Shown here: positions 30,521-63,105 of the stretch, one piece after another | Layout: every line of letters starts with the position of its first letter | Numbering within the stretch: position 1 is the first letter of the stretch | Assembly (NCBI GenBank): GCA_964016885.1 | Contig: OZ024761.1 | Coordinates: forward strand, 26,536,001-26,600,000 | Length of the DNA stretch: 64,000 bases | Reading direction: 5' to 3' | Origin: Eledone cirrhosa | Taxonomy: Eukaryota | The notes under the pieces: model-generated | What the model saw: the letters and a program-made list of their open reading frames with translations, nothing else | What the model was told of the DNA's origin: nothing | Databases searched by the model: none | Position numbers and translations under genes: made by a program

Positions 30521-30584
<64 letters not shown>

Positions 30585-30609
30585 ATAGAGGTGCAACACA
30601 CGAGTTATG

Positions 30610-30987
30610 ATATATTGGTAAACGGAAAAGAAAATGGTGACAAATTGTTCACAGTGAAAAATAGTTTAATTAGGAATAAGTGAAAATTAGTAATGATATT
30701 GCTTAGTATTCAGTTTTGGTTTTAAGTTTTACCGGTTGCGCATTTCTAATGCTTTTCAAAAATAATTTTGAGATAGAGCCCCGTGTGGTTTGCTCTAATC
30801 TGAACAAACCACACGGGGCTCTATCTCAAAATTATTTTTGAAAAGCATTAGAAATGCGCAACCAGAAAAGCTTAAAAGCAAAACTGAATACTAACCAATA
30901 CTATTACTAATTTTCACTTATTCCTAATTAAACTATTTTTCACTGTGAACAATTTGTCACCATTTTCTTTTCCGTTTACCAATATAT
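30610..30987. mobile_element. ~180-bp fold-back of a PLE-like fragment
   Basis: 30610-30792 is the reverse complement of 30805-30987, with a 12-nt spacer. HHR-like TTGAAAA-gcat-tagaa-atgc-GCA-ACCGGT-A on the minus strand at ~30727-30762. Confidence 0.8.
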
Positions 30988-31011
30988 ATATATATATAAA
31001 TATATATATAT

Positions 31012-31214
31012 ATAGGAACGAGTAGGACCCCGACGGCTGAGCTCAAGCCGTTTCGACCGCTAATTCTGGACTAAAATTTAGTCCAGAATTAGCCGTCGAA
31101 ACGGCTTGAGCTCAACCGTCGGGGTCCTACTCGTTCCTATTACCCACTCTACTACCCTAAATATTGAGTACTTTGGTGTGTTATGGTCCATCTGGTTCCT
31201 TACCACATTTCCTT

Positions 31215-31217
<3 letters not shown>
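31012..31217 (+). mobile_element. PLE-like family P1 fragment with 5' palindrome
   Basis: Palindrome 31012-31140 centred at 31076; HHR 3' half GAA-acgg...ccgt-C. Other copies at 13161-13246, ~24090-24265(-), 41910-42093 and 55945-56133(-). Confidence 0.85.
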
Positions 31218-31263
<46 letters not shown>

Positions 31264-32984: not shown

Positions 32985-33285
32985 TATTTACGTATCGAGA
33001 GTGAGAAAAAAGGGGAGGATAGGTGATAGATATAGTTATTTGCCAAGTAGCGTATGCCAAAGCTGCTCGATACTAGTGCCGGCAGTATTAAATATTCGAA
33101 GTGTTAATATTTAGTGGGCTAGCGAGTTAGCAGAGCGGAAGCACGTGGGAAAGTAAGAAATCGGAGAATAGACTGGTGCTGTTTTAAATAAACATGCTTT
33201 AACGGTCTATTCTCCGATTTCTTACTTTCCTACGTATATATATATATATAATATAAGATCAAAAGATGGTTAAAAGAGTTCCAAG

Positions 33286-33685: not shown

Positions 33686-34904
33686 AATTTTAGTACAGCA
33701 TCAACGAAGCTTTTGGCTGCAGCCAAGCTAATGAATGCAGGTTCCGTGTGCAGCTAAGCACTCAATGGAGAATATTACCCCAGAGTTGTAACATTACGTT
33801 TAGACAGCTTTGCAAATCAGATACAGCGACCGATAGTCGGACCGCATTGCCATAGCGACGAAAAAATTGAACGCAGGAAAAATGTTATATATATATATAT
33901 ATAGTTATATTAATAAGGTAATGAATTCTTTTACAATGGAATTAGCTCGAAGGAGGAAAATACCCCTGAGCCGTGTATAAACAAATATATATGTGATGAA
34001 ACACAGATACCAACACATCTGTATATATATTGCAAAAGAAAATTTAGCCAGATTGAAGTATACTAATTATTATACTACAGTTTGTCCATATCGATTTAAA
34101 ATAATAAAACAACAAAGACGAACTGCATTGCCAAAAGGCTATGATGTTTAGACACATTTAAATTTCAAAATCAAACCTGTTCTGTAGATAAGTTTAAACT
34201 TTAAAATCCAAATATGTTTCGAGATAAATAAGTGTAGGAATATCATGTCCTGCTCTCCTCAGTAAACATCCAGGGACAAATTGATATGCTTCACTTCTAA
34301 ATAATTTAAAAGACTGTGTGACGCACATGGTTTAACAGTATCTGGCTAGTCTCATAACCGTACTGCTAGAAATAACAGTCGTATATATGAGGCGGCTTTC
34401 AGCTCAGACTAGGAGCAGTTATATTAATAAGGTAATTTTCTTTTGCAATATATATACAGATGTGTTGGTATCTGTGTTTCATCACATATATATTAGTTTA
34501 TATATATTTATATTAATATTGTTAGTTACGTGTTACCATCTAAAAACATTATATCTGTATGTTTGTCACATAAATGTTAGAAAGATTGTGTCACTATTTA
34601 CTGTTGTGCATATGCAGGTGTGTTTGTGTGTGTGTGTGTTAGGGTGTGTGTTTGTGTGTGTGTGTTTGTGTATATGCCTGTATGTATGTATGCGTGTGTG
34701 TGTATGCATGCGCGTGTGTGCGTGTGTGTGTGTTAATCTGTGTATGAGTATGTGTGGTTATGTGAGTCTGTGTGTACGAGAGAGATATAACAGGATCCAT
34801 GTTTAGGTAAATTTCAACATGCAATGTTGAATGTTTTATTCTAGAATGTATGCAGGGAATGTGATTAGATCTTGGATAATCATGTTAAGTTAAATAAATT
34901 ATGA

Positions 34905-36224: not shown

Positions 36225-36266
<42 letters not shown>

Positions 36267-36515
36267 AAAGTTAAACAAGGTTCAATGCATACACCAAAGA
36301 ATGAGTTTTACAATAGATTGGAAGCACTCAACAGTGAAAGGCTTTCCACAGTTATTAATATTAATTCAAAATATTAACAAAATAGATATTCTTGTGATCA
36401 ATTATATGTTATTATACATATTTCAGAGGTACTGAGTTAAGTTCAACAGTACGTCCTGATCTGCCATGACTAAATCTTAACCATCTAATATGTCAAGGTG
36501 TGTCATGTATCATTT

Positions 36516-36582
36516 TATTTTATCTGATGAGGACGTACTGTTGAACTTAACTCAGTACCTCTGAAATATGTATAATAAAATA
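36516..36582 (+). ncRNA. Hammerhead ribozyme
   Basis: tattttat-CTGATGA-ggacgtactg-ttgaacttaact-cagtacctct-GAA-ATATGTAT-A-ataaaata. Lies within the inverted repeat 36356-36461 / 36526-36631. Confidence 0.85.
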
Positions 36583-36952
36583 TAATTGATCACAAGAATA
36601 TCTATTTTGTTAATATTTTGAATTAATATTATATATATATAATATAGAAATGGCGTCTACAGGACTAGAACTGTTTCATTCGGGGGAAATCATCAGGAAA
36701 GCTTAACTAATGATTTATCCCGCATAAAACATTTCTATATTAACTATTTATACTCTGGTATGTATTGAGTGCCTTTCTTCCTGTGGTTATTCACGATTGA
36801 ACCCGGGATAAACGTATATATATATATATATATATATTAATAAAAGGAATTCCAGCTTTGTCTGATTTACTCGTTTTATTTACAATCCTTTAAAATTTAT
36901 AATGGTATTATAATGAAATAGTATGATAGAATATTAAATATTAAGTGTTAAT

Positions 36953-41859: not shown

Positions 41860-41913
<54 letters not shown>

Positions 41914-42091
41914 GTATGACCCCGACGGCAAAGCTCAAGCCGTTTCGACGCCTATTTCTGGACATAGCCGTCGAAACGGCTTGAGCTCTGTCGTCGGAGT
42001 CATACCTTTCCCTATTACCCACTCTACTACCCTAAGTATTGAGTACTCTGGTCCGTTATGGTCCATCTGGTTCCTTACCACAATTTCTTCG

Positions 42092-42158
<67 letters not shown>

Positions 42159-57599: not shown

Positions 57600-58970
57600 C
57601 TGTTAACCCTTATGGTGTCAAACCGCCTGGAACTAACGTCTTCGTTTGCACCTAAAAACCTTCCATCATACTTTTATATAAGAACCTTTGTTAAGTTATG
57701 TTCCATCTCCCATCTTAATCCTTTTCATATCAAATCACCTGAAACTGACAAGACATCACTATTTATTTCAAAGACTTAATATGTAACTGAAAATATTTTA
57801 TCATGATTTTATGTAAGAACCTTTGTTAAGTTATGTTCCAACTCTCAACTTAACCGGAAGCTACCCCTAATTCTACGATATCCTTTAATTTCTTTAAAGC
57901 TTTTATCTTTATACATAAAAAAACCTTCCATCATAATTTTATGTAAGAACCTTTGTTAAGTTATGTTCCAACTCTCAACTTGACCGGAAACTACCCCTAG
58001 TTCTGCATTATAAAAGTGTTTGCTTTAAAGTTTTTATATTTACATATAAAAACATTCCATCATAATTCTACATGAGATCCTTTGTTAAGTTATGTTCCAA
58101 CTTCCAACTTATCCCTTATCATATAAAACCGCCTGAAACCAAACGATTCAAAACTATTTATTTTCAAGTCTTTGTATGTATCTGAAAATATTTTATCATA
58201 ATTTTATGTTAGAACCTTTGATAAGTTATTTCCAAATCCCAGCTTAATCCTTTTGATACCAAACCATCTGATACCACTCATGGTTATATGGTACACAATT
58301 ATTTATCTTAAATTCATTGTATTTATCTAAAAAAACCGCTCATCATAATTTTATGCAAAAACCTATGTTAAGTTATGTTCCAAATCAAAGCTCATACACC
58401 CATGAATAGTATGAGGTGGTTTGGTACCTAATGTCTTTGTATTCATCTAAAAAAAAAATACCTTCCATTATAATTTTATGTAAGAACCTTTATTAAGTTA
58501 TGTTCCGAACACCAGCTTAATTATTAAACTTAATAGAAAAAAATTCAAAATTGGGCTGTGTGTTTCAAAAGAAATATAATAATAAAAAATTAAAAATGTT
58601 TATCTAAATCTAAAAACCTTCCACCATAATTTTTTGCAAGAACCTTTGTTAAGTTATGTTCCAAACACCAACATAATAAGATAATAAACTTCCACCATAA
58701 CATTTTGTAAGAACCTTTGTTAACCTTTTAGTATTTACATTACTCTATATTTATTGTATTTTCACGGTAAATACTTTATTTCACATAATTATCTCACACA
58801 ATATCAAATCTACGAGATTTTGATATCATTTATTTTGAGAACAATACCTTAACATAACTATGAGCAGCTGGTTATGGCCGGTTTGAACAGAAAGAGGTGA
58901 GAGAATTCTGGCCGGATATGGCCAGTTTAAATGCTACAGGGTTAAGTTATGTTCCAAACACCAACTTAAT
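57600..58970. repeat. Degenerate ~130-bp tandem array with a TTAA MITE inserted at 58720-58945
   Basis: aagaacctttgttaagttatgttcc recurs about 9 times; the last unit is split at TTAA. Confidence 0.8.
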
Positions 58971-60029: not shown

Positions 60030-60450
60030 GTACCAGTAATGCATTGGGGTTAATTAAATCGGCCTCCCACCGTCAACTTTCAACCTTACGGGGTCGATAA
60101 AATAAATTACCGATAAAGTAAAGTACCGATAAAAGTAGATAAAAGTAAAGTACCGATAGAATCGACTTTTCTCTCCTCCCACAAATTTCTGGCCTTGTGC
60201 CTATAATAGAAATCGTGGATTGGCAGTATCGGTAGAGGGTCGGACGCCATGTTAGGGCGGTGGATTGGCAGTATCGGTAGAGGGTCGGACGCCATGCTTT
60301 ACAGCAAAGAGTTACGTCCCTTTATGGTCTGAGTTCAAATCCCGCCGAGGTTAACTTTGCCTTTCATCCTTACGGGGGTCGATAAAATAAAGTACCAGTA
60401 ATGTTCTGGTTTAATTGCTGGCCTTGTGCCAAAAGTAGAAACAATTATTG
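60030..60450 (+). mobile_element. SINE A cluster with duplicated 5' end
   Basis: gtggattggcagtatcggtagagggtcggacgccatg occurs twice, followed by a full body. Confidence 0.85.
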
Positions 60451-60596
60451 GTCTTATATTTAATTCAACTCTTCAATGTATTTCTGAGCACTGTTCAATG
60501 TGTCTTGGATATGTGCAGCCATGATTTTTCTATTGTATTGAGATAACTGTTTGTAATATGTCTGTGTTGTATTGTTGTTGTTATTGCTGTTGTTGG

Positions 60597-61752: not shown

Positions 61753-61913
61753 TACATGGACACACTAGAAGAGGAAGACCAAGGTTAACATATGTTGATG
61801 CCCTAAGGACAGACACTGGTCTGTTGGAGATGCAGGATATGGCAGCGATAATGAGGGACAGAGGCCGCTGGAGAGAACTCGTCCATGGATCTCGGGAATT
61901 TTACCCGCCTTAG
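61753..61913 (+). mobile_element. RTE LINE 3' end, 5'-truncated
   Basis: HGHTRRGRPRLTYVDALRTDTGL...MRDRGRWRELV; overlaps and completes the 322-629 copy. Confidence 0.85.
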
Positions 61914-62100: not shown

Positions 62101-62105
<5 letters not shown>

Positions 62106-62280
62106 CAGTATCGGTAGAGGGTCGGACGTCATGCTTTGACGCATAGAGTTACGAGCCTTTCCATTCTGAGTTCAAATCCCGCTGAGGTTGACTTTGCTTT
62201 TCATCCTTACGGGGTCGATAAAATAAAGTACCAGTAATACATTGGTAATTGCTGGCCTTCTGCCTAAATGTAGAAACAAT
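62101..62280 (+). mobile_element. SINE A
   Basis: Matches the family. Confidence 0.9.
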
Positions 62281-62471: not shown

Positions 62472-63105
62472 CATGTATGTCAAACATGCGGCCCTTTACA
62501 AGCACACCTGCGGCCCGCACAAAGGTTTTTGCAGCGCGAAGATGTTTTATCTTCGTAATATATATAATAAAAAAAAATTGTTATAATGTGCGCAATTAGT
62601 TGTGTGTGGCCCTCAGACAACACATATGAGACCTATGTGGCCCTCAGACAACACATATGAGACCTATGTGGCCCTTAGACAACACATATGAGACCTATGT
62701 GGCCCTCAGACAACACATATGTGACATATGTGGCCCTCAGACAACACATATGTGACCTATGTGACCCTCAGACAACACATATGTGACATATGTGGCCCTC
62801 AGACAACACATGTGTGACTCATGTGGCCCTCAGACAACACATGTGTGACTCATGTGGCCCTCAGACAACACATGTGTGACTCATGTGACCCTCAGACAAC
62901 ACATGTGTGACTCATGTGGCCCTCAGACAACACATGTGTGACTCATGTGACCCTCAGACAACACATATGTGACCTATGTGGCCCTCAGACAACACATATG
63001 TGACATATGTGACCCTCAGACAACACATATGTGACATATGTGGCCCTCAGACAACACATGTGTGACATATGTGGCCCTCGGGGCAGCCTCAGTTAGACAT
63101 GCCTG
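62472..63105. mobile_element. hAT-like MITE with internal 31-bp minisatellite, inserted in a minus-strand SINE
   Basis: TIRs catgtatgtcaaac / gttagacatgcctg; 8-bp TSD ccgtaatg / ccgtaaag; about 15 units atgtggccctcagacaacacatatgtgac.. at 62604-63079. Confidence 0.85.

Follow-up and report, generated by a model that had tools for sequence, protein, structure and literature searches.

Palindromic repeats at TA runs as likely 3′-end stubs of a Hydra-like Penelope retroelement

Three palindromes and two tail-only copies of one repeat family

The analysed stretch of DNA (64,000 nt, hereafter the window) is microsatellite-rich and of animal type. It contains five copies of a repeat family, P1, three of which are palindromes with unlike centres and TA-run flanks, each composed of a short arm and a long arm that carries a tail of 77–80 nt. 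Element positions are given throughout in the window coordinates of copy 1, with one arm plus tail (31076–31218) as the reference. Copy 1 (31012–31140) has 64-nt arms with two mismatches and a 1-nt centre at 31076 (ctaaa-a-tttag). Specifically, its short arm, which is inverted and tail-less, occupies 31012–31075 on the minus strand and has its outer end, element position 31140, in a TA run, while the centre base and the long arm (31076–31140) lie on the plus strand and are followed by the tail (31141–31220, plus strand), which extends from a proximal end (31140) to a distal end (~31217–31220) and gives way to a TA run. The TA run at the short-arm end (30982–31014) is common to the short end of a neighbouring palindrome (30610–30987), and the one at the tail end spans 31219–31260.

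In copy 2 (41910–42009), 44 of 52 positions are paired around a 10-nt spacer (cta-tttctggaca-tag). The short arm of this copy (41910–41963, minus strand) reaches element position 31081 and extends 8 nt further 5′ than the long arm, and its outer end lies 6 nt short of the usual site; the long arm, from element position 31089, and the tail (42016–42095) together occupy 41964–42095 on the plus strand. Copy 3 (56023–56133) is oriented opposite to copies 1 and 2 and has 55-nt arms with one mismatch around the centre aattc-t-gaatt at 56078. Its tail (55943–56022) and its long arm, to element position 31085 and including the centre base 56078, lie at 55943–56078 on the minus strand, and its short arm (56079–56133, plus strand) ends in a TA run. 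The predicted DNA hairpin energies of copies 1, 2 and 3 are −76.0, −44.5 and −72.5 kcal/mol, respectively. Copies 4 (13161–13248, plus strand) and 5 (24177–24263, minus strand) consist of the tail only, starting at element positions 31133 and 31134, beside the proximal site. Copy 4 ends in a TA run, and copy 5 is directly adjoined by the hairpin-bearing tail of another family. At this locus (24150–24263, minus strand) the P1 tail is joined at a TTAT site of the other tail, and a nested insertion is possible.

A preliminary description made from the sequence had reported the three palindromes, their unlike centres, short arms that end at or beside a TA run, and folds about 10–25 nt upstream of GAAA. 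All of this is present as described, with the arm 5′ ends 9–22 nt upstream of the G of GAAA; the left arm of copy 2, given there as gagctc, actually reads aagctc, and the two tail-only copies had been missed. All six palindrome ends, those of the three short arms and of the three long-arm tails, sit in TA runs, and a target-site duplication of P1 is therefore unreadable. The tails are identical at 68–73 of 77 positions among the five copies. The six arm inner ends lie at 31076, 31077, 31081, 31085, 31086 and 31089. Subfamily variants are common to both arms of each copy, and copies 1 and 3 belong to one subfamily. At element positions 31092–31094 each copy has one C/G transversion between its arms, in differing arms and places, which is unexplained. 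With half a ribozyme and without an ORF, the P1 inserts are likely dead.

P1 arms carry the 3′ half of a predicted type I hammerhead

The P1 arms present, in order, CGAA, a 5–6-bp helix with a palindromic loop, GUC and GGGGTC. In the predicted register this corresponds to the 3′ half of a type I hammerhead (31090–31126, plus strand), comprising the helix II 3′ strand (31090–31096), CGAA (31097–31100), helix III with its palindromic loop (31101–31119), the GUC site (31120), and the helix I 3′ strand (31121–31126). A half-hammerhead descriptor (GAAA, helix III, NUH, helix I 3′ strand) matches five of the six arms; the sixth, the long arm of copy 1, has a private change. Among 20,000 dinucleotide-shuffled versions of the unit, 186 contain a half pattern of CGAAA, a helix of at least 4 bp and UH, and 6 contain this pattern with a 6-nt palindromic loop as well, both patterns having been chosen post hoc. 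In the reads described below, P1 is conserved over 31090–31126, except at 31114 and for C-to-T changes (~10–15%), and becomes strongly variable from 31127, the end of the 6-nt helix I strand.

The CUGANGA core is absent from all six arms and from the tail, in agreement with the earlier proposal that this half had been lost, and the P1 inserts are not ribozymes. No copy with a CUGANGA half or an ORF was recovered among the window copies or in the collection scans, and an exact-pattern scan found no P1 relatives in metagenome contigs, viral contigs or prokaryote genomes; we infer, from the 3′ half, the 5′ hammerhead half of the parent. There are no Rfam matches in the window at gathering score, and the 150 matches listed of 334 in an E-value scan are all of miRNA or snoRNA type, below gathering scores, and located on microsatellites and palindromes. 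A type II or type III hammerhead was considered and rejected, since neither the tail nor the opposite strand yielded a CUGANGA core. GAAA as the tetraloop of loop II was likewise rejected, since no core lies on either side of the competing hairpin. The word AGCCGTCG is present twice in 31090–31121, before GAAA and after loop III, which makes the predicted helices II and III near duplicates and allows this competing hairpin to form; it folds at 0.42 in the short arm of copy 3 and at 0.99 in the long arm of copy 1.

Several Hydra-clade hammerheads have a 7-bp helix II directly before CGAA, with loops of 4–10 nt (PMC8557442, in the rows covered), and TAGCCGT-CGAA in P1 fits this predicted register. 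Placed on it, all six arm ends would lie in or just past the predicted loop II. The earlier suggestion that tagccgtc could be the 3′ strand of stem II is compatible with this register; the arm ends fall in the predicted loop II and not demonstrably in the stem.

A shared tail hairpin stands at a set distance from the short-arm ends

The P1 tail contains a hairpin of the form RCTC-stem-loop-stem-NN-GAGY, followed by RCT (31146–31172 in copy 1, plus strand). In particular, the motif has a 4-bp base formed by RCTC and GAGY, a 2-nt bulge and an upper stem. It is intact in copies 2, 4 and 5, and the upper stem of copy 1 carries a single change private to that copy. A descriptor built from the motif common to the P1 tail and the 3′ end of Hydra-2_Amil gave 11 matches in the window, whereas 60 block shuffles averaged 0.78 and never exceeded 4. 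Three of the 11 matches are in P1 and eight in other sequences, and RCT, which is outside the descriptor, follows in five of these eight. The shared hairpin (13174, 33552 and 42021 on the plus strand; 24173, 24251, 32130, 33786, 33971 and 61560 on the minus strand) spans several unrelated stub families, and most of the tails that bear it reach a TA run 45–80 nt further on.

By eye, when long and short ends are compared, RCTC lies 4–7 nt past the short end in 8 of 11 cases, one of the remaining comparisons having ACTG at 3 nt and two being without the motif; some of the families compared are related, giving perhaps five independent lineages, and two comparisons use separate loci. The short arm of copy 2 stops 11 nt, not 4–7 nt, before the hairpin. 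P1 tails fold no better than shuffles (z from −0.9 to +0.1), and no covariation was found within the five P1 tails. The covariation across families in an alignment of seven tails, from which the descriptor matches at 25983 and 53206 were left out as probably due to chance, is not counted, since the descriptor itself had served to select the rows and the argument is circular. Together with the position of the short-arm end, which is the same in thousands of reads, the set distance from the hairpin indicates that this end is likely a programmed start of reverse transcription and not the result of chance annealing.

Related stub families in the window

Other families in the window share the build of P1 and have complete hammerheads downstream of the fold. 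A complete hammerhead-like descriptor has six matches in these families, one of which is probably due to chance. Related lopsided palindromes lie at 43085–43446, 53055–53336 and 30579–30987, with centres of 1, 8 and 12 nt that lie upstream of the hammerhead; the 43k copy has a complete minimal hammerhead with a U3-A8 core variant and a CCGG helix III, and in the 30.6k copy GCAA apparently replaces GAAA. A further family group (36264–36629, and 36049, 61664 and 33348 on the minus strand) has complete type I hammerheads with a 7–8-bp helix I. At 36.4k, the arm with the tail halts inside the core, and the whole ribozyme is on the short arm. Two copies that are 97% identical over 187 nt (42467, plus strand; 36986, minus strand) carry a hammerhead-like motif in the CTGAAGAT..TGAA register, as in several of the Hydra-clade rows covered in PMC8557442. 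Another pair of related lopsided palindromes is found at 25086–25600 and 33900–34502. In the 34k copy a brief repeat of the tail end opens the inner end of the short arm, as might result from a template jump. Short inverted repeats are present at 52510–52612, 33143–33235, 13660–13796 and 7380–7463, the first three of them beside TA runs and with one-sided extensions.

Fixed outer ends and head-to-head joints in public reads

We compared four public runs with the reference arm plus tail (31076–31218). One of them, run X12, is a reduced-representation library from another sample and study. P1 is very abundant: matches were obtained in 13,266 contigs of run X1 and in 20,401 of the 12,467,656 raw reads of run X12. 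The outer ends of P1 are fixed at 31140 and ~31217, while the inner ends vary over 31076–31093. Specifically, among the loose ends listed, a TA run stands directly behind 31140 in at least 3,363 raw reads, and the tail-end TA run stands behind 31217, 31214 and 31207 in at least 6,997, 1,020 and 986 raw reads, respectively; among those listed for run X1, 85 contigs have the 31140 end and 191 the tail end.

Eleven head-to-head (opposite-strand) joints are listed, with the two arms assigned by their coordinates; raw reads contain 10 of the joints, and 4 are common to X1 and X12. In 5 of the 11 the second arm begins beyond 31140, so that the arms have no sequence in common; in 6 the second arm starts at 31131–31149, beside the proximal site; and in 7 the other end is at 31080/31081. 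None of the 11 is near-symmetric. The expectation that the palindromes would be found in raw reads is thus borne out for the fixed outer ends and the head-to-head joints, and not for the symmetric centres, which are unconfirmed there. Next to the centre, 7,154 and 822 molecules end at AATT sites (31087 and 31075, respectively), and this piling up of read ends at both AATT words suggests that the library enzyme cuts exactly there. The set of joints has probably been filtered by library cutting and by hairpin loss, which would favour non-overlapping joints, and the non-overlapping joints could themselves stem from later deletion of one arm. In run X6, which bears another organism label, one contig folds back symmetrically at 31080/31081, with 13 of 15 loose letters matching. 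One joint, present in 9 reads, returns to a position 51 nt earlier after a TA spacer; the window itself contains no direct pLTR or partial tandem.

Comparison with Penelope-type elements

A Penelope-like element (PLE) typically inserts as an inverted, 5′-truncated copy that has a tail on one side only (PMC3846280; PMC8557442). P1 resembles the standard EN+ PLE insertion in that an inverted 5′-truncated copy is joined head to head (three copies and 11 joints), with a palindrome at the junction, AT-rich targets, and a tail on one arm only that has two discrete 3′ ends; it differs in its total length of less than 210 bp, its tail of 77 nt compared with the 30–40 nt described, and its lack of a direct pLTR or an ORF (PMC3846280). 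No Pfam match to a retroelement domain, RT and GIY-YIG included, was obtained among 150 of the 177 non-repetitive ORFs of the window, the 27 excluded being in part tandem-repeat duplicates.

Insertion into (TA)n is found in nearly all Hydra families and is typical also of Naiad and Neptune (PMC8557442), and the (TA)n flanks of P1 are therefore not diagnostic of the Hydra clade. P1 also shares with Hydra-clade PLEs a type I hammerhead motif near the 3′ end, several of these hammerheads combining the 7-bp helix II and CGAA with a 4-bp helix III, and a TAT-type site ~20–30 nt past the cleavage site. It differs from them in the lack of an ORF, the half hammerhead, and the longer helix III (5–6 bp, with a palindromic loop of 7–9 nt). 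By eye, the bulged tail hairpin of P1 recurs in Hydra-2_Amil and Hydra-2_Ajap and, with one mismatch, in Hydra-1_Crog (PMC8557442), which amounts to three of the six new Hydra consensi, the other three ending within ~50 nt of the cleavage site; the 3′ end of Hydra-1_Obim differs from that of P1 by eye. The passages of PMC8557442 searched contain no description of the hairpin. Longer P1 words have no match in the Hydra and Naiad consensi or the supplement of that paper, in the parts covered, and two 9-letter words matched unrelated coding sequence. P1 likely belongs to the Hydra clade. Its identity as a PLE and the identity of its hammerhead likewise appear likely from the 3′ half, the tail and the architecture. 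Penelope expansions are described in cephalopods (PMC8967140).

Frangieh et al. (2024, PMC11167929) showed with a purified PLE protein that both strands of AT-rich DNA are nicked and extended, and that reverse transcription begins at two sites, which set the limits of the genomic tail. The two fixed ends of P1 would fit such starts by analogy, with the proximal one tied to the hairpin. On this reading P1 resembles this element, Poseidon of Anolis (PAc), in having two tail-delimiting starts, extension of both strands and AT-rich cut sites; in PAc, however, the starts are adjacent and non-homologous to the target, whereas those of P1 lie 77 nt apart and carry a TAT able to pair with (TA)n, and the PAc hammerhead, unlike that of P1, overlaps the start of the ORF. 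Hammerhead cleavage is not needed by PAc in vitro (PMC11167929). PLE hammerheads also occur as pairs on opposite strands, 100–700 bp apart (Cervera and de la Pena 2014, PMC4209133). With the hammerheads of that paper that have a palindromic helix III, P1 shares C11.1 before GAAA, a palindromic loop III and an expected long helix II; it differs in being without the 5′ half, in being unable to self-cleave as a monomer, and in its stable helix III. Non-LTR retrozymes are, like P1, short, non-coding and PLE-derived and carry a type I hammerhead, but they form head-to-tail tandems with complete hammerheads, whereas P1 is head to head and has a half motif (bioRxiv 10.64898/2026.07.22.740005). A literature search, with most subscription papers and Repbase/Dfam outside its scope, turned up neither P1 nor the tail hairpin nor twin priming by PLEs, and three unrelated papers each contain one 13-letter P1 word; with this partial coverage, the result is weak evidence of novelty.

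Proposed formation by two primings on opposite target strands

We propose that the P1 inserts are 3′-end stubs of a (TA)n-targeting, Hydra-like Penelope retroelement with two programmed starts, the short cDNAs of which are joined head to head, and we give this reading a probability of about 0.72. It is favoured by the short arms that contain sequence beyond the long arm and by the non-overlapping joints near the proximal site. The short arm also extends further 5′ than the long arm in the 53k and 36.4k families and probably in the 25k family; the 34k insertion is a counter-case, in which the long arm runs further 5′. In the proposed mechanism, the RT/GIY-YIG protein of the element would bind the tail hairpin and nick both strands of (TA)n. 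One nick would prime at the distal site and give rise to the tail arm, and the other would prime 5 nt 5′ of the hairpin and give rise to the short arm, each priming being aided by ~3 nt of TAT pairing. Synthesis would stop in or beside loop II of the hammerhead, the CUGANGA half thus never being copied, and the two cDNA 3′ ends would then be joined head to head. A tail-primed cDNA that stops near the proximal site would yield an inversion without overlap, and one that does not would yield a palindrome.

The overlap could arise in either of two ways: the RNA could be copied a second time and two like cDNA ends then pair through a 2–6-bp pseudo-palindrome, or the short-arm cDNA could fold back. 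At the centres of copies 1 and 3, like cDNA ends may have paired by way of short palindromes of odd length that have T-T in the middle, an arrangement that would impose no loop constraint; a fold-back with untemplated bases is the alternative. Copy 2 may represent a fold-back of the short-arm cDNA inside helix II. In the twin priming of L1, reportedly described by Ostertag and Kazazian in 2001, the second target strand is said to prime internally on the RNA and to produce a 5′ inversion joined by microhomology, the internal site reportedly being random and the segments non-overlapping. The internal site of P1, in contrast, is fixed, and its segments often overlap into a palindrome.

In the model of the preliminary description, one tail-primed cDNA stalls in helix II, snaps back and copies itself, and a TAT met by chance then lets it anneal to the TA target. 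Near-perfect symmetry at three centres (31076, 31085 and, in the X6 contig, 31080), subfamily variants common to both arms of a copy, and centres clustered at the predicted helix II/loop II speak for such self-priming, which was put forward for PLE junction palindromes in 2013 (Arkhipova et al. 2013, PMC3846280); the 1-nt excess of the long arm over the short arm in copies 1 and 3 is compatible with a plain snap-back too. Nevertheless, in copy 2, in three other families and in 5 of the 11 read joints, the short arm holds sequence that is missing from the long arm, and copy-back from a tail-primed cDNA cannot produce it. The short end, furthermore, lies at a set hairpin distance across families and matches a known internal start site (PMC11167929), the centre of copy 3 would need a 1-nt loop or untemplated bases, and other families fold upstream of a complete hammerhead, making a stall in helix II unnecessary. 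We therefore regard the snap-back as unlikely and do not uphold the claim that the short arm is a self-copy annealed to TA by chance, given its fixed end, its hairpin distance, the extra 8 nt of copy 2 and those five joints. Inheritance of the hairpin, in which a palindromic master is copied whole as a half-ribozyme SINE and its centres are then eroded by deletion, is likewise improbable. The inner ends do all crowd into 31076–31093, with no upstream half seen, the centre letters of copy 1 are common in reads, where ~1,160 molecules cover 31076 on one strand, and copy 2 is explicable as an asymmetric deletion of a copy-1-like centre. Against this, copy 3 would require the loss of 18 nt in exact symmetry about the centre, no arm mismatch is shared from copy to copy, long ends outnumber short ends ~2–3 to 1, and tail-only and non-inverted truncated copies occur. 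That the palindromes formed anew at insertion, as the preliminary description had held, is the simplest reading of copies 1 and 3, which share a subfamily and have unlike symmetric centres, and of arms that share variants.

The inverted repeats, TA flanks, small size and high copy number would suit a DNA transposon such as a MITE, bounded by terminal inverted repeats and duplicating a TA target. Its termini should be inverted copies of one another around a constant centre, which the earlier description had itself named as the finding that would undo its view; instead, there are three unlike centres and no terminal inverted repeat, the 77-nt tail is on one side only, partial copies retain the 3′ end and lose the 5′ side, and a ribozyme half and a PLE-type tail are present. 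A DNA transposon is hence highly improbable, and the retroelement origin is supported. A fold-back artefact of assembly or library would account for the lack of symmetric centres in raw short reads, but the arms carry mismatches and stop at a fixed element position instead of entering flanking DNA. Raw reads of another sample contain both kinds of end as well as head-to-head joints, and a contig with another organism label (X6) likewise folds back; an artefact is very improbable as well.

Taken by themselves, the P1 palindromes are what Penelope-type insertion would be expected to leave behind. Their value likely lies in what they record, namely two likely programmed starts and a hairpin that is a candidate for positioning, and the question on which they bear is the origin of the inverted ends and one-sided tails of PLEs. 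With fewer than 210 bp and very many copies, the family allows a single read to cover both start sites and the joint, and its shared hairpin is a specific candidate RNA signal for mutation in the existing in vitro system. We tentatively suggest, as a possibility that we hold to be less probable than its converse, that a conserved, covarying RNA hairpin at the start of the tail would act as a ruler for an internal start of reverse transcription 4–7 nt upstream in TA-targeting Penelopes, on a twin-primed RNA with cDNAs that end in loop II, and that P1 may spread as a half-ribozyme non-autonomous element. If this were true, the PLE tail, the inverted pLTR and the palindrome at the junction would all follow from one cis signal. 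For annotators, P1-like repeats resemble MITEs or miRNA hairpins, yet are retroelement stubs on the reading preferred here.

Other repeats in the window

A decayed coding fragment at 341–714, which has no Pfam match and which we take to resemble a LINE C-terminus from its motif, is adjoined on the opposite strand by a CTGATGA..GAAA motif, and pieces related to this region lie at 61753–61913. A SINE-like repeat of ~180–240 nt is abundant (1238–1420, 17318–17506, 21581–21778, 44929–45115, 60258–60457, 62103–62280 and others) and may be akin to the tRNA-derived SINEs of octopus. An inverted pair of 700-nt repeats (3193–3892 and 47979–48671) is 92% identical and 44 kb apart, and there is a weak C2H2 zinc-finger match at 3571–3741. 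Tandem arrays at 26220–26929, 62605–63079 and 57633–58723 have units of ~79, 62 and 130 nt, respectively.
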